20,000 bases of DNA from an uncultured virus (IMG/VR IMGVR_UViG_3300031612_000007) (IMGVR_UViG_3300031612_000007), one strand, 5' to 3'. Counted from the first letter of the stretch, positions 4,553 through 19,995 are shown. The notes: generated by a model not told the origin, from the letters alone. Numbers and translations: made by a program.

Positions 4553-7177
4553 TTGAAACACCATATATTTAAAAAGTCAACCAATAACAATTACCCAATT
4601 GCAGTATTAATAAAAAATACTTCATTCAATAAGAAAGAATTACAAGATAACTACATCACAGCATTAAACCAACAGAACATACCTAGTGATACCATCATTG
4701 CATTTACACTTGATTACAATGATACGAATAAAGCACCTGTTAAGTTTATCAAGAATTACTTGGCTAAACTACTACCGGCCCTTGATTCTCTAGGTACTAA
4801 GACTTTATATGTAGCTGACTCAGCTTACTTTAAGGTCTTAGTTGGAAAGTCAAAGGCTGAAACTAGTTTTGGTTATGTACTCCGATGCAATATTAAAAAC
4901 TTTGAACATATAAGTGTAGTGCTAGGTTTGAATCATCAGGCATTAATTTATAATCCTCAATTAAATTCAAAACTATCCCTAAGTTTAAAAACCCTAGTTG
5001 ATCATGTAACTGGGTTCTATAATCCTCCAGGATTAGACATTATTCACTCGGCTTCATACCCAAGGGACCCTGAGGCGATCTCTGCTGCGCTTGCAGCGCT
5101 GCATCGTCACCCAAGTCTTACTTGTGACATTGAAGGCTTCTCACTGCGTTTTAACGAGGCTGGTGTAGGTACCATTGCTTTTGCTTGGAATGAGCACAAC
5201 GGGATTGCATTCTGTTGTGATTATCAGGATGGCTCCTTTCAACCGAATGAAGCGATAAGAAAATTACTACTAGAATTCTTTGTTACCTATAAAGGTGAGC
5301 TAACTTTTCATCATGCTCCTTATGATGTGAAAGTATTAATCTATACCTTATGGATGCAAGACTTACTAGATACCCGTGGCTTACTAGCCGGGTTAGATGT
5401 AATGACCAAGCGTATGCATGATACTAGAATTATTACTTACCTAGCTATTAACTCCACAGCGGGGAACACTTTAGGATTAAAGTACCTGGCTCATGAGTTT
5501 GCAGGTAACTGGGCTGTAGAGGATATAAAAGATATCCGCCTTATCCCTGAAGATATACTACTTAAATACAATTTAATAGATGCCTTATCCACACATTATG
5601 TTCGTAATAAGTATGAACCAATAATGGAGAAGGATAACCAAGGGGATCTATATCGAGGACTAATGTTAGATAGTCTAAAACTGATTATTCAGTTAGAACT
5701 AACAGGCATGCCAATGTCCCGAAGTAAGATACAAAGAGTTAAAGCTAAGCTTGAAAAGATCCAGAAAGTTCAGCTAGATATCATTCAGAAAAACATTGTT
5801 GTCCACGAAGTGAATCATATTATACGTGACAGAGCAATGGTATCTGCCAATATGAAGCTTAAAGTTAAGCAGCACCCAATAGAAAAATTTGCAGACCTAA
5901 GCTTCAACCCTAACTCTAGTTCTCAATTGCAGATTCTTCTATATGATCAAATGTGGTTGCCAATAATAGACACAACAGAAAGTGGAGCGCCTGCTACCGG
6001 TGCTGAAACAATAGAGAAACTAATCAACCATACAGATGTCTCTGAATATAAAGAATTGCTTACTGCAATAATTGCCTATGGTGGAGTAGGTACAATGTTA
6101 TCTACATTTATTCCAGCATTTGAGAAAGCAATTTCTAAGGATGAGAGCGACACAGTATGGTTACATGGCTCACTTAATCTTGGTGGAACTGTATCTGGAA
6201 GATTATCTTCTAGTAATCCAAACTTAACCAATCTACCTTCTGGTTCAACATATGGTAAATTAGTTAAGAGCTGTTTTAAAACGCCCACTGGCATAATAAT
6301 GGTCGGTGCTGATTTTAATAGCCTAGAAATGATGATAGATGCACTTACTACTCAGGACCCAAATAAACTCCGTGTATACGAAAGTGGTATGGACTCTCAT
6401 GCATTTAATGCTTCAGTTTACTGGCCTGAGAAAATGCCTGTAATCGTTAAAGCTATGCAAGCTGCAACTACACCTACAGAATATGCTAAAGCAGTTAATC
6501 GTGTAAAGAAGGAATTCCCTGAATTACGCCAACGATCAAAGACTGTATCTTTTGCTCTCCAGTATGCAGGCACAGCTCACACCTTAGTCAAGAACTCCGG
6601 TTTCTCTAGGGAAGAGGCAAACAAAATCTACAATAACTATCACGAAACTTACTCAACTTCTAGAGAGTATTCCAAAGTTAAAGTTAAGCAGGCATCTAAA
6701 GATGGTTATGTCACCGTAGCTTTTGGATTACGTGTTCGTACTCCTCTACTTGCACAAGTTGTCTACGGTGCTCCTAAAGTACCCTATAAAGCAGCAGCTG
6801 AAGCTAGGACTACAGGTAATTCATTATCTCAGTCCTACGGCTTACTCAATAATAGAGCTGCAGTTGCTTTCATGAAGAAAGTATGGAAATCTAAGTATCG
6901 CTATAACATATTACCAATTAGCTTAATACATGATGCATGCTACTTCTTGATTAAAGATGATGTTGAAGTACTTGAGTGGGTAAACCAAGAGTTAATAACA
7001 GCTATGCAATGGCAAGACTTACCTGAGCTAAAGCATGATGAAGTAAAGCTAGGCGCAAACCTTGATGTTTTCTATAAAGGGTGGCACCAGCCAATTACGT
7101 TACCTAATGTATCCACTGCACAGGAAATACAGAAGCTAGCCAGGGAAACCCAGAAAATCTACGATGATAAAACATAA
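4553..7177 (+). CDS. Family A DNA polymerase with 3'-5' exonuclease (N4 gp39-like)
   Basis: Exo I CDIEG, Exo II HHAPYD, Exo III YNLID; TVSGRLSSSNPNL; motif A ADFNSLE; motif B RQRSKTVSFALQY; motif C IHDA. TTG start preceded by AAGGAG. Confidence 0.96.
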   Translation: MKHHIFKKSTNNNYPIAVLIKNTSFNKKELQDNYITALNQQNIPSDTIIAFTLDYNDTNKAPVKFIKNYLAKLLPALDSLGTKTLYVADSAYFKVLVGKSKAETSFGYVLRCNIKNFEHISVVLGLNHQALIYNPQLNSKLSLSLKTLVDHVTGFYNPPGLDIIHSASYPRDPEAISAALAALHRHPSLTCDIEGFSLRFNEAGVGTIAFAWNEHNGIAFCCDYQDGSFQPNEAIRKLLLEFFVTYKGELTFHHAPYDVKVLIYTLWMQDLLDTRGLLAGLDVMTKRMHDTRIITYLAINSTAGNTLGLKYLAHEFAGNWAVEDIKDIRLIPEDILLKYNLIDALSTHYVRNKYEPIMEKDNQGDLYRGLMLDSLKLIIQLELTGMPMSRSKIQRVKAKLEKIQKVQLDIIQKNIVVHEVNHIIRDRAMVSANMKLKVKQHPIEKFADLSFNPNSSSQLQILLYDQMWLPIIDTTESGAPATGAETIEKLINHTDVSEYKELLTAIIAYGGVGTMLSTFIPAFEKAISKDESDTVWLHGSLNLGGTVSGRLSSSNPNLTNLPSGSTYGKLVKSCFKTPTGIIMVGADFNSLEMMIDALTTQDPNKLRVYESGMDSHAFNASVYWPEKMPVIVKAMQAATTPTEYAKAVNRVKKEFPELRQRSKTVSFALQYAGTAHTLVKNSGFSREEANKIYNNYHETYSTSREYSKVKVKQASKDGYVTVAFGLRVRTPLLAQVVYGAPKVPYKAAAEARTTGNSLSQSYGLLNNRAAVAFMKKVWKSKYRYNILPISLIHDACYFLIKDDVEVLEWVNQELITAMQWQDLPELKHDEVKLGANLDVFYKGWHQPITLPNVSTAQEIQKLARETQKIYDDKT

Positions 7178-7187
7178 GGAATTTCAG

Positions 7188-7565
7188 ATGAGTAAAGAAG
7201 CTTGGCAAGAAAGTAGTGATGAAGATGCACATGAATATAACAGACAAGAAGAGTGGATGGAGCAGCGACAAAGGGAGCAAGATGTACAAGAAGATCTAGA
7301 ACTTGGTCTCATGACCAATACCCATGATGACGCTATAAACCACCCAAAGCACTACACAAATTCTAGAGCCAGATGCCCTGATTGCAATGCTACAGTAGAA
7401 TGTATCACAGTAGCTAAGCATATGGGATTCTGTCTAGGTAATGTCCTTAAGTACGTTTGGAGGGCAGGCGAGAAGGGCGATGCCATAGAAGATTTAAAAA
7501 AAGCAGCTTGGTATCTCCAGTGTGAGATTGATAAACGATGCACATCTTATGGGAAACCAAAATGA
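7188..7565 (+). CDS. DUF3310 (SaV-like) domain protein with acidic N-terminal extension
   Basis: DAINHPKHY...ECI...GFCLGNVLKYVWRAGEKG..EDLKKAAWYL signature. Start placed at ATG 7188 after TAAGGA (the track uses 7164). Confidence 0.85.
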   Translation: MSKEAWQESSDEDAHEYNRQEEWMEQRQREQDVQEDLELGLMTNTHDDAINHPKHYTNSRARCPDCNATVECITVAKHMGFCLGNVLKYVWRAGEKGDAIEDLKKAAWYLQCEIDKRCTSYGKPK

Positions 7566-7663
7566 AAATAGTAATAGAGCTTATATTTTTCTTAGGCGTA
7601 GTTTACGCCACATATCTTCTTTTTACCACAGGTACGATTCTAATTACAGGAGGAACAGAGTGA
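7562..7663 (+). CDS. 33-aa single-TM microprotein (MKIVIELIFFLGVVYATYLLFTTGTILITGGTE)
   Basis: Translated by hand; ATGA overlap with the upstream stop and GTGA overlap with the next start; hydrophobic. Confidence 0.6.
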   Translation: MKIVIELIFFLGVVYATYLLFTTGTILITGGTE

Positions 7664-7812
7664 ACAAAATAGTTGAGAGTATTGCGACGGTTTGTGCTGG
7701 AATTGCAGCGGCTGCAGTAATTATCGGTGTATTCATAATACAGTGTGTATTAGCAGTAATACCAGTAGCAATAGGTATCTACGTAATTCTATGGTTTCTA
7801 GGGAAAGCGTAA
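7660..7812 (+). CDS. 50-aa membrane microprotein (1-2 TM)
   Basis: GTG start after GGAGG; C-terminal part of track ORF 7522..7812; about 35 hydrophobic residues. Confidence 0.65.
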   Translation: MNKIVESIATVCAGIAAAAVIIGVFIIQCVLAVIPVAIGIYVILWFLGKA

Positions 7813-7904
7813 TGAAAGATCAAAGAAAGATAAGTGCCATTATAGCTATTGCTTTAGTGGCGGTTTTATCACTTATATCATTACTTTTTTGTTTAACTAC
7901 TTAA
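7812..7904 (+). CDS. 30-aa single-TM microprotein (MKDQRKISAIIAIALVAVLSLISLLFCLTT)
   Basis: TAATG stop/start overlap; basic N-terminus followed by a hydrophobic helix. Confidence 0.6.
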   Translation: MKDQRKISAIIAIALVAVLSLISLLFCLTT

Positions 7905-7921
7905 GAGATTGAGAGGTCAGA

Positions 7922-8218
7922 ATGAAAAAACTTATAACTTTAACAATATTAATTATATTTATGTTTTGTTGGACACAAAGCTATGCAGATAGTAATCCAT
8001 ACAGCGCTGCTAATAACCCTTACAGTGCCCAGAATAATCCATATAGCACTAATAACAACCAGTACAGCTCTGAGAATAATCGCTACAATACAAATAGTAC
8101 CAGAATAATTCGTAATGGCTCCGGTGAAGCTATGGGGTATGCAGTACCTAGATCCGACGGTGGTACTAACTATTATAGTTATGATGGCGGGTACATAGGC
8201 TACCAATCTCCTGAGTAA
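7922..8218 (+). CDS. Secreted/periplasmic protein with NNPYS heptad repeats
   Basis: GAGGT SD; Sec signal peptide ending SYA|D; five 7-aa repeats; short Gly/Tyr beta-rich C-terminus. Confidence 0.8.
   Translation: MKKLITLTILIIFMFCWTQSYADSNPYSAANNPYSAQNNPYSTNNNQYSSENNRYNTNSTRIIRNGSGEAMGYAVPRSDGGTNYYSYDGGYIGYQSPE
7991..8095 (+). repeat. Five degenerate 21-bp coding tandem repeats
   Basis: agtaatccatacagcgctgct / aataacccttacagtgcccag / aataatccatatagcactaat / aacaaccagtacagctctgag / aataatcgctacaatacaaat. Confidence 0.8.
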
Positions 8219-8260
8219 TCTCTTAGTGTGTTAATATTTGCCTAAGACCCATGGAACAAT

Positions 8261-8274
8261 AAAGGAGGTGATCC
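8261..8274 (+). promoter_or_regulatory. Extended Shine-Dalgarno sequence AAAGGAGGTGATCC
   Basis: Exact reverse complement of the conserved 16S rRNA 3' tail GGAUCACCUCCUUU. Confidence 0.75.
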
Positions 8275-8279
8275 TATCT

Positions 8280-8354
8280 ATGCCTTATCTAGAAGCCTTA
8301 AAAAGTTTTTGGTATAAGTTCCTTTCATTGGTAACAAAAGGAGAATCAAAGTGA
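8280..8354 (+). CDS. 24-aa amphipathic peptide (MPYLEALKSFWYKFLSLVTKGESK)
   Basis: Follows the extended SD; its TGA overlaps the GTG of the next gene (GTGA). Confidence 0.5.
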   Translation: MPYLEALKSFWYKFLSLVTKGESK

Positions 8355-8536
8355 AACGAACACCAGTATTCTTAACAGGAATAGCTTTCTTTATTCTATC
8401 TTTTATATGGTTCTCAAGCGCATCCATAGCAGATACACACAAAGTATGCCATGTAGCTTCAGCAGGCTGCAACAAGGTAGAGTGTATTAATAAAGATTGT
8501 AGCTCAAGTTGTAAATCCCATTGCAAACATGAATAA
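8351..8536 (+). CDS. Small secreted cysteine-rich peptide (signal peptide plus 34-aa, 6-Cys mature part)
   Basis: AAGGAG SD and GTG start; signal peptide ending SIA|D; mature DTHKVCHVASAGCNKVECINKDCSSSCKSHCKHE. Confidence 0.75.
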   Translation: MKRTPVFLTGIAFFILSFIWFSSASIADTHKVCHVASAGCNKVECINKDCSSSCKSHCKHE

Positions 8537-8547
8537 AGGAGATTCAC

Positions 8548-8631
8548 ATGCCCCAAGGTCCAGGAACTTACAAAAACCCAGGAAGACCCCGTACTAAATC
8601 TAAAACTAAAAAGAAGAAGTGCTTTAGGTAA
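8548..8631 (+). CDS. 27-aa basic peptide (MPQGPGTYKNPGRPRTKSKTKKKKCFR)
   Basis: AAAGGAG SD 6 nt upstream; TAATG overlap with the next gene; GRPR AT-hook-like core. Confidence 0.7.
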   Translation: MPQGPGTYKNPGRPRTKSKTKKKKCFR

Positions 8632-8828
8632 TGTGGTACTTACTCGTATCCCTGTACTTACCTGTACAGGATGTGGGTATTACTTACCGCTTTGATGAGT
8701 GGGGGTCTGAGTGGGCTTGTACTCAAGCAAAAGCTAAACTAATAGACCATCAAATAGATCTACTGAGAACAACCGGCAAAGATTCATTTATAACCAAGAT
8801 AGAGTGTAAGGAAGTAGAGAATGGCTAG
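8631..8828 (+). CDS. Hypothetical protein with hydrophobic N-terminus and one Cys pair
   Basis: 65-aa ORF coupled at both ends; F..E.AC...K...IEC pattern. Confidence 0.65.
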   Translation: MWYLLVSLYLPVQDVGITYRFDEWGSEWACTQAKAKLIDHQIDLLRTTGKDSFITKIECKEVENG

Positions 8829-8946
8829 TATCCCCGCCGAGTTGATTACTATGTGTGTATTAATTCTATCAATTGGAATGGTAGGTATAGCCATTAGTGG
8901 CATCCTATGGGTACTAACACAGATAGCAGAAGATATTAATAGGTGA
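8821..8946 (+). CDS. 41-aa single-TM microprotein
   Basis: Translated by hand as MASIPAELITMCVLILSIGMVGIAISGILWVLTQIAEDINR; overlaps both neighbours. Confidence 0.6.
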   Translation: MASIPAELITMCVLILSIGMVGIAISGILWVLTQIAEDINR

Positions 8947-9146
8947 GAAAATGCAGGACCTGTAGGCTAGAAAAGCCCCTGGTTGACTTTATAAGAAATT
9001 TCCCTCATTGTAATACTTGCATTACTGAGTATAAAAAAAGTTGGGAAAAAAGGAATAGAATAAAATTGGAAGAGTATCTAGAACTAGGCGATGATAAAGA
9101 ATTACCAGTAGGTGGTGGAGTAGTACCAAACTATAAACCTAAGTAA
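8943..9146 (+). CDS. Small CxxC...CxxC zinc-finger-like protein
   Basis: KCRTC..EKPL.DF...HCNTC resembles the Zn module at the N-terminus of EndoVII/HNH-type phage nucleases. Confidence 0.65.
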   Translation: MRKCRTCRLEKPLVDFIRNFPHCNTCITEYKKSWEKRNRIKLEEYLELGDDKELPVGGGVVPNYKPK

Positions 9147-9149
9147 TAC

Positions 9150-9208
9150 GAAAGGTAGTTAGCGTCGTAACCCAAAGCTTGGAGAGGCAGAGGAGTTAGC
9201 TACCTTTC
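9150..9208 (+). other. Intergenic stem-loop (14-bp stem with G-U pairs and an internal hairpin)
   Basis: gaaaggtagttagc (9150-9163) pairs with gttagctacctttc (9195-9208); inner ccaa-agc-ttgg hairpin. Confidence 0.55.
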
Positions 9209-9240
9209 TTATTAGAAAGCTTATCAAAGGAGTAGTTCTA

Positions 9241-9934: not shown

Positions 9935-10171
9935 ATGAGTATCTATCTAGAAGCCGATCAATTCTTAACTCTAGCTGCAGAGCTAGCAGAACGTAAACTT
10001 GACCTTCTAGAACATATTGACGGTATCGAAAGGATACATGTTCTTCATGATGACGGTGATAGCAGTTACTCTTGTAATGCTCAATACGTTTTCACTAGAG
10101 AAATGGGTATAGTATGCGAGATTTTAAATGAGAATGGGATATACCAGAGGGAGCCAAATGGACGTACATGA
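9935..10171 (+). CDS. Hypothetical protein
   Basis: 78-aa ORF abutting the upstream stop. Confidence 0.65.
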   Translation: MSIYLEADQFLTLAAELAERKLDLLEHIDGIERIHVLHDDGDSSYSCNAQYVFTREMGIVCEILNENGIYQREPNGRT

Positions 10172-10328
10172 TAATGAAATAAAAAGACTTAAAGCATTAC
10201 GTTTCCCAAGAACTTACCGAGAAGCAACAGGCAGTAACTTCTACGCGGAACCTAAAATAAAATCTTCTTGGAAAAGTTGGGTATCCCTTTTACTGTTTAT
10301 AGTTATCCTACTAGCAGTTGTAGAATAA
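10158..10328 (+). CDS. Small protein with C-terminal TM anchor (RFPRTYREA motif)
   Basis: GAGGGAG SD before ATG 10158; hydrophobic C-terminus. Confidence 0.65.
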   Translation: MDVHDNEIKRLKALRFPRTYREATGSNFYAEPKIKSSWKSWVSLLLFIVILLAVVE

Positions 10329-10795: not shown

Positions 10796-11061
10796 TGAAA
10801 AAGAAGTATTACAACTACAATTATAATCCCTATAAGGATACAGGTAAGCCTGTTAGGGTGTTTAGTAGTTGTTACTACTGGGAAGTACCTGTCCATCCAA
10901 CACAGTTTGAGTTGCTGCAGCATTTAATAAAGGATACTGCAATAACTAAAGCAAACGCTATAGCACAGCGGGAGTTAATTGAACTTAGAATGGATAAACT
11001 AAAGAAGACTCTTAATGAGAAAAGAGTTAAACGCTTAGCCGACAGTGAAGACTTTGACTAA
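10795..11061 (+). CDS. Hypothetical protein (last + strand gene)
   Basis: 88-aa ORF whose stop overlaps the stop of the convergent - strand gene. Confidence 0.6.
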   Translation: MKKKYYNYNYNPYKDTGKPVRVFSSCYYWEVPVHPTQFELLQHLIKDTAITKANAIAQRELIELRMDKLKKTLNEKRVKRLADSEDFD

Positions 11062-11810
11062 ACATTAGAGGTCTTCGTATGTACCGGTATCTTACATACC
11101 GCTTCATGACCACGGAACCAATGATGGCAGGAGTTACAACTGTATCTCTTGTACACTCCAGATGCTGTAGCAATATTACCCCTCGCTATAAAATGTTCAG
11201 ACCCACAAGTAGGGCAGCGCATCTCATCTAATACCTTATCTTCATATAGATTCTGGTTAGGATGATTCTTAATCCATGGCAATAACTTAAAATATACCTT
11301 TTCAGTTAGCGCCACATCTTTCTTATTATAAGAAATCATTTTTTTCCAGGACTTTTCATCATTGGACATGCAACCCTTCCAATCGTCCATGTTCATTCCC
11401 TTAGTTTTATGACCAATACCAAGAGCTTGTGCAACATAATCTAATTTATTACTTGGAAACTTGAATTGACTACGAACAGTACGTAGTAAGTCAATTTGTT
11501 TATAAGGACTTGGTGGAAGAAGTGGAGGCTCGGCCAATAAAAACTCACTATGGACCCAAGGCATATCAAAACGCTGGCCATTATAATGAATTACTGCATC
11601 AGCCTCACTTATCAAGGCGTGTAAACACGTTAGAAAGTCTTTATCACCTTTGGATCGGCTATAAATACCTCTCTTAGTTGTCCATTTCGCCGCCCAGCAC
11701 AGCATATACCCTGACTCAATTAATTGACTTAAGGAGATATTCTGTTGCCATAAACCCCAACAATAACCTGTGTTGGGTGCCGTCTCGATATCAAGGGTAA
11801 GTAAACGGAT
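11058..11810 (-). CDS. DnaQ/RNase H-like 3'-5' exonuclease with C-terminal Zn ribbon; probable ATC start
   Basis: Exo I LDIETAP lies in frame upstream of the track's ATG (11705); Exo II HYNGQRFD; Exo III YNKKDV; CPTCGS...YSCNSC. GGAG lies 5 nt before ATC at 11810. Confidence 0.85.
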   Translation of the reverse strand: MRLLTLDIETAPNTGYCWGLWQQNISLSQLIESGYMLCWAAKWTTKRGIYSRSKGDKDFLTCLHALISEADAVIHYNGQRFDMPWVHSEFLLAEPPLLPPSPYKQIDLLRTVRSQFKFPSNKLDYVAQALGIGHKTKGMNMDDWKGCMSNDEKSWKKMISYNKKDVALTEKVYFKLLPWIKNHPNQNLYEDKVLDEMRCPTCGSEHFIARGNIATASGVYKRYSCNSCHHWFRGHEAVCKIPVHTKTSNV

Positions 11811-11883: not shown

Positions 11884-12093
11884 TTACTTAACTGCTCTCT
11901 CGAGTTCTAAAATATACACAGCCAGTTCTTCGGCATTTTCAGAATCCATGCACATTCTTCCATCTGACATTTGTGTAATTTCAAGACTTGGTTTCGTCGG
12001 AGCTATCAGTCTTGTTGGGTGGCTTTGACAAGCCATTAGAGAAATGGTTAGCAAACCAAGCACTAGGGTTCTTTGAAATTTTATCTCGCTCAT
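11884..12093 (-). CDS. Putative o-spanin (Rz1-like lipoprotein)
   Basis: AGAGAGGGG SD before ATG 12093; lipobox LMA|C; Pro-rich mature segment; overlaps the i-spanin-like gene in another frame. Confidence 0.7.
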   Translation of the reverse strand: MSEIKFQRTLVLGLLTISLMACQSHPTRLIAPTKPSLEITQMSDGRMCMDSENAEELAVYILELERAVK

Positions 12094-12190
12094 GTTGAGC
12101 CCCTCTCTTTTCGTCTGTACGCTTATACGCAAGTAACAGCCACAACAGCTTATCCAATACAGCGATAAGCGTTGTGCTAAGAGCGATCAT
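11981..12190 (-). CDS. Putative i-spanin (Rz-like)
   Basis: N-terminal hydrophobic segment and charged tail; overlapped by the lipoprotein gene; follows the holin. Confidence 0.55.
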   Translation of the reverse strand: MIALSTTLIAVLDKLLWLLLAYKRTDEKRGAQHERDKISKNPSAWFANHFSNGLSKPPNKTDSSDETKS

Positions 12191-12396
12191 GCAGAATCTG
12201 TAGATTTAGCTATACGTTTAACAGCTTTGATGCGCCCGAATATGGCTACAGCACCACCTACTAAAGCAGTTACTTGTTCTGCTAAACCATTTGTATCTCC
12301 AAGATCCCATCCAGCAAGTTGTGAGATAGTCGCAAAAATAGCGATTAATGCTCCCCAGATAGTTTTACTTTCTAGTAAACCTTTTATATCATCCAT
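12187..12396 (-). CDS. Putative holin (2 TM, basic C-terminus)
   Basis: SKTIWGALIA...AVAIFGRIKA pattern typical of small phage holins; GGAG SD; adjacent to spanin-like genes. Confidence 0.65.
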   Translation of the reverse strand: MDDIKGLLESKTIWGALIAIFATISQLAGWDLGDTNGLAEQVTALVGGAVAIFGRIKAVKRIAKSTDSA

Positions 12397-12423
12397 AATG
12401 ATCTCCGGTTAAATTACGAACAA

Positions 12424-12454
12424 CTATACTACTCTTTTTTTATCTTGCTGCAAA
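12424..12454 (-). promoter_or_regulatory. Candidate sigma70-like late promoter
   Basis: Minus strand reads TTGCAG-N16-TAGTAT(AG), upstream of the holin SD. Confidence 0.4.
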
Positions 12455-12456
12455 GA

Positions 12457-12711
12457 CTAATCTTTATCAGCCTTACGACTAACCTTTGCTTCAATTCTGT
12501 CAAGCTTATTAAAAACTGTTTTCATTACATCTGAAAGTTCTGCCCTTGTCATGTAACTCCCTGCGACAAGAACCTCAATTGAAGAAACTTTTTTCATTAT
12601 ATCTTTATCAGCAGTTTGTAATTCTTTTACTGCTTGCCAGATAACATGGAGCAAAAATCCGAGCAAGGTTCCTAGTCCACCTAAAACCCAATTAACCATT
12701 ATTTGTTCCAT
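12457..12711 (-). CDS. Single-TM plus coiled-coil membrane protein (holin/antiholin-like)
   Basis: N-terminal TM VNWVLGGLGTLLGFLLHVIW, heptad C-terminus ending KLDRIEAKV..KADK; lysis context. Confidence 0.6.
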   Translation of the reverse strand: MEQIMVNWVLGGLGTLLGFLLHVIWQAVKELQTADKDIMKKVSSIEVLVAGSYMTRAELSDVMKTVFNKLDRIEAKVSRKADKD

Positions 12712-13115: not shown

Positions 13116-13382
13116 TTAAGTTAGTATATAAAACCAACCTGCAGCAGATGCTGCTATTCCTGAAACAACACCAGCATAACTCCATTTTAAATCTAGGTTA
13201 AAGAAGTTAAGCGCTGCTACATTCTCAGTGAATGAATAATCATGGTCCTTATGCTGATAGTACTCTCGTGTAATTGCCCATAAGATAACAATATGAGCAC
13301 CGAATCCAGCTGTTATTAATGTAAGTCCGAAACAACTTCCAAAATGTGCAGATTGATCCCTCAATTCTTTATTCACGGTCAA
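13116..13382 (-). CDS. Small integral membrane protein (YfiM/VanZ-like D..H...E..D pattern)
   Basis: DQSAHF, REYYQ and DL motifs separated by hydrophobic helices. Confidence 0.55.
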   Translation of the reverse strand: MTVNKELRDQSAHFGSCFGLTLITAGFGAHIVILWAITREYYQHKDHDYSFTENVAALNFFNLDLKWSYAGVVSGIAASAAGWFYILT

Positions 13383-13818
13383 CTCCCATACGTTTCACAG
13401 GCTGTGGTCTACGCTTTTCATCCACTGCCACATAAGTTAATATAGCTTCCGTTACTTTAATACAGATTTCCTCATTTCCTTCACGAGGTCCTCGCTGTGC
13501 GTAAACAGTAACATCTACTGTAATTGAAGTATACCCTACCTTAGTAACCTCAGTATAGAAACTAACCAAGTCACCTACATATACAGGGTGTTTAAATACA
13601 AAATTATTTACTGCGACTGTAACTACGTGTCCACCTGAATGGCGAATTGATGCCATACTACCGGCTATATCAACCTGGGACATTATCCAACCTCCGAATA
13701 CATCCCCTGAATGGTTAGTATCCGATGGCATAGGAACTATTCTTAGTGTTGGGTTAAGTCCTTTTGGTAGTGAAGTATAAAATGGTGTCAATAATCTTTC
13801 CTTATCATTTATTGTCAC
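13369..13818 (-). CDS. yciA: Acyl-CoA thioesterase, hotdog fold (YciA-like)
   Basis: MPSDTNHSGDVFGGWIMSQVDIAG, VVTVAV...F..PVYVGDLVSFY...VGYTSITV.V and VTEA.LTYVAVD...P are the YciA family hallmarks. Confidence 0.9.
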   Translation of the reverse strand: MTINDKERLLTPFYTSLPKGLNPTLRIVPMPSDTNHSGDVFGGWIMSQVDIAGSMASIRHSGGHVVTVAVNNFVFKHPVYVGDLVSFYTEVTKVGYTSITVDVTVYAQRGPREGNEEICIKVTEAILTYVAVDEKRRPQPVKRMGVDRE

Positions 13819-14114: not shown

Positions 14115-15329
14115 TTATAGCTCCGCTGATGCTGTAAATGTACCTGTGTTTAAAAACAATGCCGCACGCAGACCTAAAGTGTTTGTCAGGGCTGAAGCAC
14201 AAGTCATATCGTATTGAATCATTTCAGGCTTACAGTAACTTGCGCCTAATGTTGCATTTGCCCCAATAGCACCGCCATTCCACAAACCGCAAGTACCAGA
14301 CAAAGCCCCAGTAGGGGCAGTGCGCATAACAACGGGGAGTTCAAATCCCCACCGATGAACAGTAGTTGCGTTGTTAGTGTTTCCTGACCCAAGCATAGTA
14401 TTTGCGTGCGGCCCATAATGTTGATAATACCTCTGACACAAAGCAAACTCAGTTCCATAACTTCTATGTTCAAATGGTGTGGCTACTGAACCTATTTCTA
14501 GTTGAACACCTGTGATATAAATTGTAGCATTTAAGACACTTATTAACTTTACATCAGCAGCCTTGCGCTTAAAATTCCCTGCTTGCCATGTATCTGCTGT
14601 TGATGTTTCGAAAGCTGAACCAGACCCTATATCACAGATACCTACATATATGCTAACTCCATTAGTGCTATCAGCAGTAACCCAACCTGTTCCTGTTGTA
14701 TCTCCGGGAACTGTTACACTATGTTGTACCCAAGAATTAACTTGTCCCGCAGAGACAGTTACGGCGGTAGTATATGACCTATTGCTTTGTGTCATATTGC
14801 CTAAGAATGAAACCCCGTATGATCCTGCGGTATTGGCATACATCCAAAAACTTAAAGTAAAGGATTTTGCATTAGCTGTACCAAAACTCATGTCCGTGAA
14901 ATTAAACCCTTCAACAGCTTGCCATATAGCATTTATATCTCCTGATGAAGCGGTTGCTGCTGTAGTTGTTTTTACTTCAAAACAGTCATAGAATCCTCCT
15001 AGAGTAGAGGCATCTGTTTTTCTCCCTGTCATAACTCCACCTGAAGTACCCTTGTATGCTCTAGTACGATCAGCAACAAATGTAGTTGTCGCTGTAGCAC
15101 CTAATGTAATGGTTGATGTTCCGTGTCTCTGATTAATCCTCATATCACCATTAATTATCTTGTTTCTATTACCTGCTAACTGACCACCATTAAGTGAGGT
15201 ACCATTTAGCGAAGTAGCAGTGACACCCGCTGTAAACGTAGCGTTTTCATTAGTATCTACACTTAGATAAGTATTCCCATTATTCTTTAGCGTAGTAGTA
15301 GTACTCGTACTTTCTATACTAGATGCCAT
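14115..15329 (-). CDS. Tail fibre/adhesin with carbohydrate-binding-like domain
   Basis: RNKIINGDMRINQR...TLSFW...ITGVQLEIGSVATPFEHRSYGTE..LCQRYY...VMRTAPT pattern of phage fibre-associated proteins. Confidence 0.8.
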   Translation of the reverse strand: MASSIESTSTTTTLKNNGNTYLSVDTNENATFTAGVTATSLNGTSLNGGQLAGNRNKIINGDMRINQRHGTSTITLGATATTTFVADRTRAYKGTSGGVMTGRKTDASTLGGFYDCFEVKTTTAATASSGDINAIWQAVEGFNFTDMSFGTANAKSFTLSFWMYANTAGSYGVSFLGNMTQSNRSYTTAVTVSAGQVNSWVQHSVTVPGDTTGTGWVTADSTNGVSIYVGICDIGSGSAFETSTADTWQAGNFKRKAADVKLISVLNATIYITGVQLEIGSVATPFEHRSYGTEFALCQRYYQHYGPHANTMLGSGNTNNATTVHRWGFELPVVMRTAPTGALSGTCGLWNGGAIGANATLGASYCKPEMIQYDMTCASALTNTLGLRAALFLNTGTFTASAEL

Positions 15330-15553
15330 TAGACACTTACTCCTTTAAGCTCACCAAGAGTTTTCATATCATCCACTTGTTTGGTTACATCTCTAAGTCT
15401 ATTCTTTTCTTTAACAATAGCTGAAGTATCTTCAGATGTTTCTAATGCTCTATTAAATAGAATGTCCTGTGCTTCAAGTAGAGGTTTGCGTTCCTCACGA
15501 AGCCTATCTTTGGTAATAACTTTAGCCTTATTAATGTCTATTATTATGCCCAT
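15329..15553 (-). CDS. Tail fibre assembly chaperone-like protein
   Basis: LREER.PLL...D..F.RA.E......K..LRD motif; GAGGAG SD favours ATG 15553. Confidence 0.7.
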   Translation of the reverse strand: MGIIIDINKAKVITKDRLREERKPLLEAQDILFNRALETSEDTSAIVKEKNRLRDVTKQVDDMKTLGELKGVSV

Positions 15554-15732
15554 GTCCAAGCTCCTCTAAAAGTTCTATCTGAAGGTACATCTGAATCTTC
15601 TACTATTTCAAATTCAGCACCTTCTGGTACATCTTTAGCAGCAAGTTCTTCAATGGTGTGATCTTGTAGGTAATCAGGAGTTGGGATAAGAACTGCCACT
15701 CCACCTTCTTCTGTTTTATATATTATTCTCAT
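15544..15732 (-). CDS. Small tail fibre-associated protein
   Basis: IIY....GGVAV.IP...A.KDVP.G....IV..SD.PSDRTFRGAW motif commonly paired with the preceding gene; AAGGA SD. Confidence 0.7.
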   Translation of the reverse strand: MRIIYKTEEGGVAVLIPTPDYLQDHTIEELAAKDVPEGAEFEIVEDSDVPSDRTFRGAWTWA

Positions 15733-15741
15733 AGTTGTCCT

Positions 15742-17088
15742 TTATCTAAAAATAGCTATACATATATTGTGAGCATCCCATGCCGACCCATTTTGGTAAG
15801 CTACTGTATATCTACAAGATCCTACTGCGGGTACTTCAGTTTGAGAGTTTTGAGATACGTTAATCTGGTCTGCACCCGCGCCACCTGCCGTACCCGCTGA
15901 ACAATAATTCACATCTGGCATATTGTTTGTAAAGTTTACTCTGTAATTTCCAACTGCCACATCAGTAACAGAGCTAACATTAGCACTACCACGAATAGCA
16001 AGAGTACCCTGTCCATTGAAGTTAACCCAAGCTCTACATCCATAAGCTGTACCAGTAGAGCCAAATCCTGAGTTGAACTTCAAGTCACCTGTGGAAGTAA
16101 CCCTCATCTTCTCAGAGATTGCCCCAGAATCTACAGATGTACTTGTACGAAATACTAAATCGGCAGGGGCTGCTGAACTAGCAGTTCTATCACACCCTAT
16201 ACTCGCCATTATTCCTGCGTTGTTTTCATTCATCCAATCAATTGTGAATGGCTGAAGTCCAGTAGTGGAAGCAGGTGATGTGATTTCAAGGTTTCCCGCA
16301 CCTGCAATACGCATACGCTCTGTCGGGTTTCCCCCACCTCTGGTAGAGAATATTAAATTTCCGTATCCCGCGCTTTCATAGTTACTTGCAATTGATGCAC
16401 TGCCGTGATCGTCATGGCTAAACATCATTCGAGCCAAGTTTCCTGTGGACTTCGTTACTGAATTTATAGCCAATTGCCCTGTGTATGCACTAGACTCAGC
16501 TATATCATCTCTTATATCTAGTTTTGCTTGTGGTCCAGTAGTACCTATACCAACATTTCCGCCATTTGGATTTAACAATAGTGGATACTCTGTTTGCATT
16601 CCAGTTTGGTCATAACTCTGTAGCCATGCGCCACTTGTACTATTACCACCAATATCTAAGACGGCATTATTTCCGGGTCTAATCCGTAAAGTAGTTCCTG
16701 CGCTAGGAGTAGTTCCAGTAGTGGCAGGTAGTGATGTTCCTCCACCTTCTATATGTAATTTTGTAACAGGTGCGGTCTTATTTATACCAACATTACCTGA
16801 CGTATCAATACGAACACGTTCTGTACTATTCGTATTGATGCGAAATGGAATATTATCACCAGTACCAATTCCACCAATACCATTATAAGTTTCAATATCT
16901 ACTAAACCACCACCAGAAGTTCGTTGGAATCTAGCTGCGACACCATCAGCTGACTTTGCTACATTTAAATTTACCGCAGGGGTGGTAGTACCAATACCTA
17001 TATTATTATTAGTATCTACAGTTATATAGGTAGTGTTCTGATTTTTAAATGTAGTAGTAGTGCTTGTAGTTTCTATACTAGATGCCAT
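15742..17088 (-). CDS. Tail fibre protein with GNVGIGTT.P / ERMRI repeats
   Basis: Three N[IV]GI[GN].T.P units, ER[MV]RI motifs, and a C-terminal RAWVNFNG...NVSSVTD...G.Y.VNF domain. Confidence 0.82.
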   Translation of the reverse strand: MASSIETTSTTTTFKNQNTTYITVDTNNNIGIGTTTPAVNLNVAKSADGVAARFQRTSGGGLVDIETYNGIGGIGTGDNIPFRINTNSTERVRIDTSGNVGINKTAPVTKLHIEGGGTSLPATTGTTPSAGTTLRIRPGNNAVLDIGGNSTSGAWLQSYDQTGMQTEYPLLLNPNGGNVGIGTTGPQAKLDIRDDIAESSAYTGQLAINSVTKSTGNLARMMFSHDDHGSASIASNYESAGYGNLIFSTRGGGNPTERMRIAGAGNLEITSPASTTGLQPFTIDWMNENNAGIMASIGCDRTASSAAPADLVFRTSTSVDSGAISEKMRVTSTGDLKFNSGFGSTGTAYGCRAWVNFNGQGTLAIRGSANVSSVTDVAVGNYRVNFTNNMPDVNYCSAGTAGGAGADQINVSQNSQTEVPAVGSCRYTVAYQNGSAWDAHNICIAIFR

Positions 17089-17102
17089 ATTATTCCTTTT
17101 TA

Positions 17103-17939
17103 CTACGTCTTAATAATAAAATTAATAGCTGCAAATGGCTGAACATTATTATGTGCGCCACCACCACCTGTATTTTGGTTGACGGCTGTAGTGTTTTGGT
17201 TCGTAGAAGTAGCAGCTTGATTTGTTGCTGTTTGCGCCACGGTTAATCCTGGAGTCCACGTTCTTACACCATGATTAGACCTAGCAGCAGATACATCCGA
17301 ATCTACATTTGGCCATGCTCCCACCCCAGTGTATGAGGTATGGTTATGTGCATCCTGTGTATGATTATGTGCATCTTGTGTATGGGTATGAGCATTCTGT
17401 GTATGAGTATGAGCAGCAGTTTCTGTTGTTGTCAGTGTATGGGTTTCTGCACCACCAGTAGCAGCCAAGTTTCTAGCAGTTAAACTCGCACCAGTACCAA
17501 CACCAACTGGAGCACGACCTCTTAAATCGGGTAATGCAAAAGTACTTGAACCATCACCTGCGCCCCAAGCTGTACCAATTGCAGTAAACAGTGCAGAGTA
17601 AGTAGAGCGTGATACCAAAGCACCATCACAAGCAAGCCAACCTGAAGCTATACTTGCTCCTGCGAACATCTTTACATCACCTGATGCAGAAGCAACAATA
17701 CCAGTACTTGTTCCAGTTCCACCACTAGCAACGGGTAAAGGTGTAGTTAAAGTAACTGTGCCATTTGCAGCAATAGTCATTTTGGCTGCTATAGTCCCAC
17801 TGGTGGTTGTCTTTAATTCTAACTTACTCTCACCAGAACTAATCTCTGTAGCTGTTATAGCCGCTACATTAAGTGTTCTAGAGCATCCAAACTCTAGAGC
17901 ATCTGATCCACCATTGGGCGTTATAATCTTAACTGTCAT
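17103..17939 (-). CDS. Tail collar domain fibre protein with HxH repeats
   Basis: Collar signature G.VKMFAG.....GWLACDG..VSR.TY..LF.AIGT.WG.GDGSSTF.LPDLRGR; ends HNNVQPF...NFIIKT. Confidence 0.88.
   Translation of the reverse strand: MTVKIITPNGGSDALEFGCSRTLNVAAITATEISSGESKLELKTTTSGTIAAKMTIAANGTVTLTTPLPVASGGTGTSTGIVASASGDVKMFAGASIASGWLACDGALVSRSTYSALFTAIGTAWGAGDGSSTFALPDLRGRAPVGVGTGASLTARNLAATGGAETHTLTTTETAAHTHTQNAHTHTQDAHNHTQDAHNHTSYTGVGAWPNVDSDVSAARSNHGVRTWTPGLTVAQTATNQAATSTNQNTTAVNQNTGGGGAHNNVQPFAAINFIIKT
17338..17412 (-). repeat. 21-bp coding repeats (HTHTQNA/HTHTQDA/HNHTQDA/HNH)
   Basis: Repeated tgtatg..tatg.gcat..tg units on the + strand. Confidence 0.8.
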
Positions 17940-17949
17940 ATTCTTTCCC

Positions 17950-19197
17950 TTAAGTTAAGTAGCGAATGATTACGATACCTGACCCACCAGATGATTGAGT
18001 AGCCCAACTTGTATTAGGACCTTGTCCACCACATCCGCCACCGCCACCACCCGTGTTTGCTGCACCTGCTGTAGGAGCGCCTGTGTTATAATTAAATGAA
18101 CCATTACCACCACCACCATTACCACCTGCTCCACCTGCTGATGTATTCTGCCAAGATCCACCACCACCACCACCTGCGTAGTAGGCACTTGAACCTGAGT
18201 ATGAGTTTGCTACGCCAACACCACCTACACCACCATCGGTATTACCTGTACCACCACCACCACCGCCTGCTCCTCCTCCACCACCTCCTCCGTGGGAGGA
18301 GGCAGCAGTGCCACCTGTATTACCTTGACCTGCAATACCTTCAGCACCATAACGGTAGTCTCCATGCGTTGTACCATTACCACCACCACCTGAACCGCCC
18401 TTACTAGGTGTGAGAGTAGTGTAGTTACCACCTCTACCTCCACCAATAGCTGTTAGTCCAAGAGCAGAGGAGTTTTCACCATTATATCCAGATGTAGTTG
18501 CAACTGTGGCAATATCTGGCGCACCTGACCCTCCTGCTCCAATAGTAATAGGATAACTTTGGGCAATAACTTTAAAACCTGTACCAGTAAACAAACCACC
18601 TGCTCCGCCACCACCTGAGTGCCAGTATCCACCTGCTCCGCCACCTGCAACAATCAAGTAATCAACAAGTTTACTACCCGTAACAGTGAGTATTCCACTG
18701 CTTGTGAAGGTGTGAATAGTATATGAACCAGAAGTTGTAACTGTTCCACCTGTAGCTGCAAAAGTTCCTATACCACCACTCGCAACGGGTAGTGGAGTAG
18801 CTAGTGTCACTGTACCCGAAGAATCTATACCCATCTTCTCTGAATTGTTTGTAAAGAAGGTCATTTTGTTTGTCGTTGGGTTATAACCTACCTGACCATT
18901 AGTAGTTGCACCTACTTTACCCATATACATTACAGTTTGACCAGGAGTTCCTGCCTGTACTTGTAGCGAAATGGAAGCCTGTTGGGAAGCTGCATCTGCT
19001 TTAACTGTTAACTTGTTCTCCCCAGAAGCGGTTGTGCTAGTAATTAATGCAGCACCTACTGTTCCTGTAAGAGTGGGAGATGCACTAAGTACTACATTCC
19101 CTGATCCAGTAGATGCTGTAGCTCCTGTACCGCCTTCTGCAGCAGGTAAGACTGTTTCAAAGTCGGCACTACCTGATCCATTTATTACTGTTGTCAT
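17950..19197 (-). CDS. Glycine-rich domain tail/adhesin protein
   Basis: Fibre-like N-terminal half; then ATGG...YTIHTFTSSG...YLIVAGGGAGG, many poly-Gly runs and GGSGIVIIRY. Confidence 0.82.
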   Translation of the reverse strand: MTTVINGSGSADFETVLPAAEGGTGATASTGSGNVVLSASPTLTGTVGAALITSTTASGENKLTVKADAASQQASISLQVQAGTPGQTVMYMGKVGATTNGQVGYNPTTNKMTFFTNNSEKMGIDSSGTVTLATPLPVASGGIGTFAATGGTVTTSGSYTIHTFTSSGILTVTGSKLVDYLIVAGGGAGGYWHSGGGGAGGLFTGTGFKVIAQSYPITIGAGGSGAPDIATVATTSGYNGENSSALGLTAIGGGRGGNYTTLTPSKGGSGGGGNGTTHGDYRYGAEGIAGQGNTGGTAASSHGGGGGGGAGGGGGGTGNTDGGVGGVGVANSYSGSSAYYAGGGGGGSWQNTSAGGAGGNGGGGNGSFNYNTGAPTAGAANTGGGGGGCGGQGPNTSWATQSSGGSGIVIIRYLT

Positions 19198-19242
19198 TAG
19201 GTAGTTTCTCCTTTAGGGTATTTATACTTCATATTCTTTTCC

Positions 19243-19995
19243 TTAAGTTAAGTAACGAATGATAACAACACCAGATCCGCCTGCTCCTGCTCCACCTGAT
19301 GAATCACCGCCACCACCACCTCCAGTATTAGCAGTACCAGAAGCACCTGTAGCACCACCGCCACCATTGCCACCTACTGAGTCTGTTCCACCTCCGCCAC
19401 CGCCGCCACCTCCGCCACGATATATTGATGAACCTGATATGGATGAAGCTAACCCAACACCGCCATTTCCGCCGTTACTACTACCACCTGTTGCCGAATA
19501 TCCACCACCACCTGCACCACCACCGCCACCTGCGGGGTAATTGGGGCCTGAAATGTTACTATTACCACCTGAGTTACCTTGACCTGATGTGCCTGCACAA
19601 CCATTTGTTGATCCAGATCCGCCTGATGCGCCACCGCCTGAACCACCCACAGCACAGACATAACTTCCTACCGCATTTCCAGAACCTCTACCACCTCCTA
19701 CTGAAGTTATAGAGCTAAATACAGAGTTAACACCTGAATAACCATAAGCACCACCTGCTCCCACGGTTACTGTAAGTCCAGTTGCTGCCACATCAAACCC
19801 TGTTGCAGTCCTATATCCTCCTGCACCTCCTCCGCCTCCTGAGTCACCGTTCCCGCCACCACCACCTGCGATAACTAGATACTCTACAGTACCTACTTTG
19901 TTAGGCGTGAAGGTTCCTGAGCTATTGAAAGTATGGATAGTATATGCACCAGATGTAGAAATTGTACCGCCTGTAGCTGTAAATTGCTGCGCCAT
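19243..19995 (-). CDS. Glycine-rich domain tail/adhesin protein, possibly 5' partial
   Basis: Paralogue of the 17950..19197 C-terminal domain; the frame stays open to the window edge. Confidence 0.8.
   Translation of the reverse strand: MAQQFTATGGTISTSGAYTIHTFNSSGTFTPNKVGTVEYLVIAGGGGGNGDSGGGGGAGGYRTATGFDVAATGLTVTVGAGGAYGYSGVNSVFSSITSVGGGRGSGNAVGSYVCAVGGSGGGASGGSGSTNGCAGTSGQGNSGGNSNISGPNYPAGGGGGAGGGGYSATGGSSNGGNGGVGLASSISGSSIYRGGGGGGGGGGTDSVGGNGGGGATGASGTANTGGGGGGDSSGGAGAGGSGVVIIRYLT

Follow-up and report, generated by a model that had tools for sequence, protein, structure and literature searches.

Nine small open reading frames (ORFs) lying in a row behind the DNA polymerase gene of a marine N4-like phage probably occupy a hypervariable accessory slot that is filled one to three genes at a time by recombination, and the genes likely come from a pool common to unrelated phages of one host. 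We observed the position of the region, purifying selection on seven of the ORFs, allele swaps, a gene-sized indel bounded by repeats, and homologues scattered over other phages.

Genomic setting and layout of the nine ORFs

The window, by which we mean the whole 20-kb stretch of DNA that was analysed, is the end part of a 67,399-nt (67.4-kb) marine N4-like phage genome recovered as one contig, a size inside the 60-90 kb expected of N4-like phages. This genome contains a 4043-aa ORF, placed as in N4-like phages (Schitoviridae), that is, judging by its size and position, the giant virion RNA polymerase. The primase, exonuclease, major head, portal, and terminase genes matched N4-type PHROGs in a profile search, and the DNA polymerase was 48-49% identical to those of cultured Schitoviridae, including Pylas and CB1. 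The region was present in 20 sequencing runs, all of them (20/20) marine or seawater metagenomes, and none of the listed runs containing it held RNA data. The nine ORFs lie directly behind the DNA polymerase and DUF3310 genes, within a run of small plus-strand ORFs that stops at position 11061, where it meets a convergent minus-strand block of exonuclease, spanin- and holin-like, and tail genes. The 67-aa ORF that follows them has an HNH/endonuclease VII-like N-terminal part (PHROG 1035, E 6e-6) and a C-terminal tail in common with phage record L012 (tblastn E 0.02). Small-gene insertions and variation in hypothetical genes have been noted in N4-like genomes (PMC3915230, PMC6027278), and a review describes phage small proteins as numerous and functionally varied (PMC11323111).

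All nine ORFs were found consecutively on the plus strand at the lengths given in the original prediction (Table 1). They had been described as mostly coupled; this amounts to five of the eight internal junctions (four GTGA or TAATG overlaps and one 8-nt overlap), because the other three are gaps of 17, 61, and 11 nt. Coupling is not lost at the borders of the set, since overlaps also tie ORF33 to the DUF3310 gene (ATGA) and ORF41 to the 67-aa ORF (GTGA), and ATGA or TAATG joints occur at four further junctions elsewhere in the operon. A scan for sigma-70-like promoters returned 8 sites where 13.3 were expected, one of them on the plus strand, inside ORF98. No plus-strand terminator appeared in a scan of the region, and Rfam gave a single, chance-level match (E 0.39). 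We infer read-through from the replication operon (no promoter or terminator of its own was found, N4-type promoters falling outside the scan); the nine genes would then be read as the tail of this (middle) operon via coupled starts.

Table 1 Features of the nine-ORF region and its borders, with positions counted in the window
Feature	Position	Strand	Remarks
DUF3310 gene, upstream neighbour	7164..7565	+	Pfam PF11753, E 1.8e-15; ATGA junction to ORF33
ORF33, predicted single-TM peptide	7562-7663	+	33 aa; KD19 2.33
ORF50, predicted TM peptide	7660-7812	+	50 aa; GTG start behind AGGAGG; KD19 2.91
ORF30, predicted TM peptide	7812-7904	+	30 aa; KD19 3.07; weakest evidence of the nine
ORF98, signal-peptide-like N-terminus	7922-8218	+	98 aa; KD19 1.72 at N-terminus
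Extended Shine-Dalgarno site	8262..8274	+	13-nt perfect complement of 16S rRNA 3' end, before ORF24
ORF24, short peptide	8280-8354	+	24 aa; KD19 0.53
8-nt repeat, copy 1	8337..8344	+	ORF61 ribosome-binding site; left end of ORF61 indel
ORF61, signal-peptide-like N-terminus and six-cysteine domain	8351-8536	+	61 aa; GTG start; KD19 2.03, N-terminal
8-nt repeat, copy 2	8535..8542	+	ORF27 ribosome-binding site; right end of ORF61 indel
ORF27, lysine-rich peptide	8548-8631	+	27 aa; net charge +10
ORF65, predicted compact protein	8631-8828	+	65 aa; KD19 0.99
ORF41, predicted single-TM peptide	8821-8946	+	41 aa; KD19 2.51
67-aa ORF, downstream neighbour	8943..9146	+	GTGA junction from ORF41

Transmembrane (TM) and signal-peptide labels follow from hydrophobicity alone, scored as the best 19-residue Kyte-Doolittle mean (KD19). 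By this measure, ORFs 33, 50, 30, and 41 are TM-like (KD19 2.33-3.07), in line with the four TM peptides that had been claimed, and the claimed highly basic peptide is ORF27, with its net charge of +10. The N-termini of ORF98 and ORF61 are hydrophobic, but what had been called clear Sec signal peptides are signal-peptide-like on the Kyte-Doolittle scale only. One peptide had been described as amphipathic; ORF24 has a hydrophobic moment of 0.54, a value that is ordinary among the neighbouring ORFs, and neither ORF24 nor ORF65 is hydrophobic over 19 residues. Hydrophobic products thus number six of nine (four TM-like, two signal-peptide-like), against one among the nine small ORFs that come next (Fisher p = 0.05), a comparison with boundaries set post hoc and with the early-region ORFs, a pooled set chosen by eye, excluded. 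Some functional sorting is possible, given that neither those next nine nor the equivalent slot of phage CB1 reaches this density of hydrophobic ORFs. The description of the set as envelope targeted captures this local density but does not extend to ORF27 and ORF65, which carry no envelope signal. In a global catalogue, 15.3% of small-protein families are transmembrane or secreted by prediction, and the same source cites 30% for a human-microbiome set (PMC11364881).

None of the nine ORFs scored above cut-off against Pfam, PHROGs, PADLOC, or NCBIfam, and the DNA of the region had no match among cultured phages. The ORFs had been thought largely invisible to the ORF track; six of nine do fall under a 60-aa cut-off, but the exact sequences of five (ORFs 33, 50, 98, 65, and 41) are already gene calls in a public collection.

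Purifying selection, allele exchange, and a gene-sized indel

Codon comparisons support the view that the nine ORFs behave as genes. Most are conserved under constraint: a testable homologue was available for eight, and purifying selection was found in seven, the eighth (ORF30) showing too few changes (2 nucleotide changes); ORF27 is the one that lacked a homologue close enough for the comparison. The diverged allele L008 differs from the window by one change over about 5.6 kb of the helicase and polymerase genes and by about 110 substitutions over 7553-8196, with the frames preserved: four frames stay open, and the sole real gap (8 nt) is intergenic. Against this allele, dN/dS was 0.44 for ORF33 (79% aa identity), 0.29 for ORF50 (67% aa identity), and 0.24 for ORF98; for ORF30, a value of 0.30 came from 2 changes only, and 29 of 30 aa were identical. 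The frame that competes with ORF33 gave a dN/dS of 1.54, and the 87-96-aa extension of ORF50 proposed by gene callers (87 aa, P0009) was rejected because it uses that frame over ORF33. Against unrelated phages, pN/pS was 0.17-0.50 for ORF65, 0.19 and 0.34 for ORF41, 0.43 for ORF24 (codons 1-16), and 0.15 for ORF61 (codons 40-60).

Within this phage population, the nine ORFs are intact in the near-identical copies L001, L002, and L006; in L008, a single exchanged block comprises ORFs 33, 50, and 98. Two alleles were present within single sequencing runs at 7567-7871 (X18 and X19) and at 8675-8807 (X14, X17, and X19).

A joint from 8336 to 8535 drops ORF61, and 8 letters at this joint fit both sides, matching the repeated ribosome-binding sites that bound the indel. 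The joint was seen in two of the seven runs examined (of 23 listed), X19 and X15, from two studies; the contigs lacking ORF61 have a length of 91 nt, and a sister phage, for which a 63.7-kb contig exists, is a possible source of them. At the joint, the ORF24 frame meets a frame that stops at 8597, which would give a product of about 39 aa. The ORF24 homologue in L012 has 40 aa (10 of 24 residues identical, E 0.003, with the same leader), and because the two lengths are so close, we infer that ORF61 was inserted and thereby shortened ORF24. The extended Shine-Dalgarno site before ORF24, defined against the 16S rRNA 3' end of E. coli rrsA, is the only site in the genome with at most two mismatches, and 12 of its 13 positions are conserved in L012. 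ORF61 itself matched a 67-aa ORF of L036 (19 of 22 residues identical) that retains the signal-like N-terminus and the cysteine-rich end. Another ORF61 match (E 4e-4), inside a 518-aa gene of the AT-rich virus L037, was rejected as chance.

Gene families and their scatter across phages

In no independent genome did we find this set of genes in this order; in other phage types, whose records are fragmentary, at most three of the nine genes occurred together. L012 and L160, which have a P22-like portal, carry ORFs 24, 65, and 41 between terminase genes. ORFs 65 and 41 are found in L027-L031, from a phage with a family B polymerase (PolB), and L026 ends just past ORF65. In L036 and L162, ORFs 61 and 65 lie three ORFs apart, without ORF41. 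These other phage records are 4-41% complete, so absent genes could lie elsewhere in those phages. We saw ORFs 33, 50, and 30, which had no collection scan of their own, in this phage population alone. Further genes link the three other phage types to this genome: an exonuclease (59%), a membrane protein of 88 aa (52%), and a protein of the tail region (39 of 43 aa identical). Co-occurrence, which had been proposed as a check on the cassette, therefore speaks largely against it, since the genes occur alone or in groups of two or three in relatives; but the ORFs themselves are conserved. Some of these families of small genes may already be listed in Fremin 2022.

ORF65 and ORF41 recur together most often. 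ORF41 overlaps and directly succeeds ORF65 in three of the four phage types in which the next gene is visible; this adjacency persists down to 55-60% identity, and ORF41 homologues are 78% identical at the amino acid level in L012 and 60% in L027-L031. L036 has ORF65 without ORF41. The AF2 model of ORF65 is a compact beta-beta-alpha-beta fold (pLDDT 88.1) in which the hydrophobic N-terminus forms strand 1, so that this segment is predicted to be a beta-strand of the fold and no export signal. Two cysteines are invariant across 15 aligned sequences. The shape recurs, at weak E-values, in many uncharacterised 50-70-aa phage proteins, several of them with a Foldseek probability of at least 0.9 and TM 0.6-0.7. 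A Foldseek search of the model against BFVD gave no match at E<=0.001, and ORF65 had no match among cultured phages. Its likeness to DUF1482 (PF07358) is at the fold level only (Atlas score 0.77), with no Pfam match at E<=0.1, and we found no literature on DUF1482 in phages.

The second recurrent family is that of ORF98, which has four 7-residue Asn/Tyr repeats (21-nt repeats in the DNA) and a C-terminal beta-meander (AF2 model, pLDDT 87.6). The family is widespread and unnamed, comprising 62 clusters at E<=0.001; its members have three or four of the Asn/Tyr repeats and a short beta-meander, and a hydrophobic N-terminal stretch is present in all 38 aligned members. When these 38 were scanned against family profiles, no family was matched by more than one member. 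ORF98 had no match among cultured phages and plasmids, its model had none in PDB or BFVD by Foldseek at E<=0.001, and profile searches against solved structures, ORF98 included, gave nothing meaningful. ORF98 relatives occur without the other eight genes at four viral and five bacterial loci. In bacterial bins, by raw count, three of the five loci are no more than about 3 kb away from a defence or toxin-antitoxin gene (Hhe-like, AbiL-like, or Xre-RES). In L018 and L020, the relative comes after a cell-wall hydrolase gene. In L015, three of the four ORFs that come after it encode TM peptides; four of the nine ORFs in that run are hydrophobic, and the peptides are unrelated to those described here.

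ORF27 fits a one-residue-shorter variant of a very common family of lysine-rich phage peptides. A motif derived from ORF27 is present in about 8100 viral stretches, and ORF27, with its N-terminal motif and basic tail within the 20-40-aa range, scored 28.2 bits against the family HMM. None of 1985 scored shuffles reached this value (best shuffle, 24.2 bits), although the test is partly circular, the family having been gathered with a motif drawn partly from ORF27. The peptides concerned (MPxG[K/P]GTY, unnamed; median, 31 aa) are like ORF27 in size range and charge, and the first 8 residues of ORF27 are identical in 4 of 117 members. They differ in having four residues before GRP in all 120 members fetched, where ORF27 has three. 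ORF27 had no match among cultured phages, and a homologue of another of the nine genes lay within 1.5 kb at 0 of 120 ORF27-motif loci.

These patterns bear on several readings other than the mosaic slot. There is a small but real chance that the mosaic contains one or two genuine envelope submodules, namely, ORF65 with ORF41 as a soluble protein and its membrane anchor, and perhaps 33-50-30-98. The succession of ORF41 after ORF65, the movement of the left block as one allele in L008, and the TM peptides behind the ORF98 relative of L015 all argue for such units. However, linkage alone keeps small overlapping neighbours together, L036 has ORF65 on its own, the ORF65 model has no export signal, and in one relative ORF50 is apparently followed directly by ORF98 (as judged from a 30-letter loose end only).

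The original prediction, that of a dedicated nine-gene cassette acting jointly on the host envelope, now appears very unlikely. The genes are contiguous, overlap at most of their junctions, are predominantly hydrophobic, and stay intact in the three near-identical copies; but a single cassette does not account for overlaps that continue past both of its ends, for an ORF61 that is dispensable, being missing from a variant, or for homologues scattered across unrelated phages, never more than three of nine together outside this population. Nor does the scan reveal a sigma-70-like promoter or plus-strand terminator belonging to it, and two of its members, ORF27 and ORF65, lack an envelope signal.

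We regard an auxiliary role in lysis, in which holin-, antiholin-, or spanin-like products would set the timing, as highly improbable. Lysis control commonly relies on TM peptides together with an exported, cysteine-rich small protein, and the corresponding predicted products are present here; the hydrolase gene preceding the ORF98 relative in L018 and L020, and the location of the L012 block among packaging genes, are also consistent with such a role. However, holin- and spanin-like genes form a cluster of their own on the minus strand of this genome (11884-12711), an endolysin-like gene adjoins the terminase gene, and no match to a lysis family was obtained for any of the nine. Finally, that the shortest ORFs are mostly untranslated chance frames in AT-rich filler is scarcely credible: the case for these ORFs is made from sequence, and ORF30 offers too few changes for a test, but selection, frames preserved in diverged alleles, ribosome-binding sites, and homologues in other phages contradict the idea for every ORF except ORF30.

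Proposed function, host, and relation to known systems

If the region is a mosaic accessory slot, its products would act one by one rather than as a unit. The four TM peptides would enter the inner membrane, the periplasm would receive ORF98 and ORF61 by export, and each of these six products would act on a host envelope protein independently of the others. The most likely outcome would be that competing phages are blocked or a membrane-bound defence is damped; by analogy with exclusion proteins such as T4 Imm and Sp, action at the envelope against rival phages or defences would most plausibly be what these genes provide. Individual genes may have one or another of the envelope functions proposed in the original prediction (superinfection exclusion, receptor masking, lysis timing, or inhibition of membrane-bound defences or signalling). 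ORF27 may bind nucleic acid in the cytoplasm, and ORF65 may be a soluble partner of ORF41, at least in some phages. Fast gene turnover would follow from variation among host strains.

The host is, by a slight preference, a marine ammonia oxidiser of the Nitrosomonadaceae, as suggested by a thioesterase of the phage. The closest named proteins to this YciA thioesterase are from Nitrosomonadales (79%), Nitrosomonadaceae (cluster, 76%), and Nitrosospira (cluster, 73%), and a Nitrosospira bin is the named source of one ORF98 relative. Counter to this assignment, four of five genome matches to the ORF98 pattern are Methylococcaceae. Among the papers that a literature search listed, no title or abstract opening dealt with an N4-like phage of Nitrosomonas, and a 2026 preprint on ammonia-oxidiser phages contains, in its main text, none of the terms "N4-like," "Schitoviridae," or "marine" (10.64898/2026.05.02.722434).

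A more elaborate proposal, which we consider doubtful, is that unrelated phages of marine ammonia oxidisers exchange a set of envelope microproteins that includes a new two-part membrane module (ORF65 with ORF41) and a widespread phage-blocking factor of the periplasm (ORF98); ORF98 would then serve phages against rivals and bacteria in defence islands. Whatever the functions of its products, the region is a well-documented case of how a phage accessory region is built, through swapped alleles and through insertion or deletion of whole genes at ribosome-binding sites that are repeated, and the same microprotein genes occur in four unrelated phage types. It leaves two candidates that can be tested, the ORF65-ORF41 pair and the family of ORF98, which has no name. 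Should one of them prove to block phage infection, it would represent a new factor in exclusion or defence; should a marine ammonia oxidiser be the host, the region would be relevant to how viruses control nitrification.

T4 Imm and Sp, T5 Llp, and Cor are small envelope proteins that mediate superinfection exclusion. Like the products predicted here, they are small inner-membrane or periplasmic proteins encoded in phage accessory regions; searches of Pfam, PHROGs, NCBIfam, and PADLOC matched none of the nine ORFs to a described exclusion family at scores above cut-off. Alteromonas schitovirus A5, an N4-like marine phage, and myovirus V22 offer a parallel for gene sharing across distant families of phages of one host; there, the shared genes are a tail fibre and a chaperone with known roles (PMC10579305), whereas here they are mostly uncharacterised microproteins. 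The closest counterpart in genome organisation is the schitovirus CB1 (Pectobacterium phage, NC_048653), in which the space between the DNA polymerase gene and the convergent lysis/tail block is taken up by successive small hypothetical genes, among them one annotated as encoding a membrane protein, and by an HNH gene. Although the two slots have no sequence homology and the ORFs described here are shorter and more often hydrophobic (6/9 versus 1/8), they are alike in position and orientation.

Candidate nucleic acid signals and small ORFs in and around the nine-ORF run

The leader of ORF24, the 24-aa member of the nine-ORF run, carries a perfect complement of the 16S rRNA 3' end that is the sole site of its kind in the genome. 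In L012, an unrelated phage with a P22-like portal and an ORF24 homologue, 12 of the 13 nt are kept at the counterpart (2602-2614). We interpret this leader site as a predicted Shine-Dalgarno pairing of uncommon length. A second candidate signal, an inverted repeat, folds with a z score of -3.8 and had no match in Rfam; it could be a terminator, a processing site, or a small RNA. The neighboring 67-aa ORF looks like a truncated nuclease piece put into a microgene, and its C-terminal tail corresponds to a separate tiny ORF in L012 (3483-3530), directly after the ORF41 homologue. Another small ORF, of 66 aa and with a TM-like segment, falls outside the borders that the original prediction had set for the nine ORFs.

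Features in and around the nine-ORF run (window coordinates unless marked G000, the whole phage genome; KD19, best 19-residue Kyte-Doolittle mean)
Feature	Position	Strand	Remark
13-nt perfect complement of 16S rRNA 3' end	8262-8274		Precedes ORF24
67-aa ORF	8943-9146		N-terminal part endonuclease VII/HNH-like
Inverted repeat, 18 nt, 35 nt apart	9144-9214		Gap 3' of 67-aa ORF
66-aa small ORF	10128-10328		TM-like segment at the C terminus, KD19 2.17
RNase H-like exonuclease with zinc ribbon	11058-11705	-	End of lysis block
Spanin- and holin-like genes	11884-12711	-	Lysis cluster
88-aa membrane protein	13116-13382	-	52% homologue at L028 3803-4117
YciA-type acyl-CoA thioesterase	13369-13818	-	PF03061
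At least five consecutive tail-type genes	14115-19995	-	
Endolysin-like gene	G000 38203-39159	-	Adjoins terminase

Genes common to other phages and bacteria

The exonuclease is 59% identical to an L012 gene (1818-2561) located between the terminase genes of that phage, and its real start is probably further upstream than the current call. The homologue of the 88-aa membrane protein in L028, from a PolB phage, lies immediately 3' of the ORF65-41 pair. Around this pair in the large PolB phage (L026-L031), we also observed Kdo synthesis genes (KdsA/KdsB-like) together with genes for a C5 methyltransferase and a cupin, and a phage OMP-like gene. ORF27 belongs to a lysine-rich peptide family without a name, found in ~8100 viral stretches (median, 31 aa in L038-L157, 120 of its loci); ORF27 itself matched no Pfam or PHROG profile. 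Relatives of ORF98 occur at five loci in bacterial bins (L021-L025), four of them Methylococcaceae, next to MerR and VIT/VWA genes, an Hhe-like helicase, an AbiL-like pair, an Xre-RES pair, or a trypsin-like protease.

Lysis, tail, and thioesterase genes

No endolysin adjoins the spanin- and holin-like genes. Within the tail-type row, two genes have Gly_rich_2 domains and one has a collar domain; a Gly_rich_2 gene of similar kind is present in L162, a phage with ORF61 and ORF65 homologues. The thioesterase gene is set among lysis and tail genes. Among named relatives of its product, those of Nitrosomonadales/Nitrosomonadaceae are closest (73-79%); this may be an auxiliary metabolic gene and could serve to mark the host.
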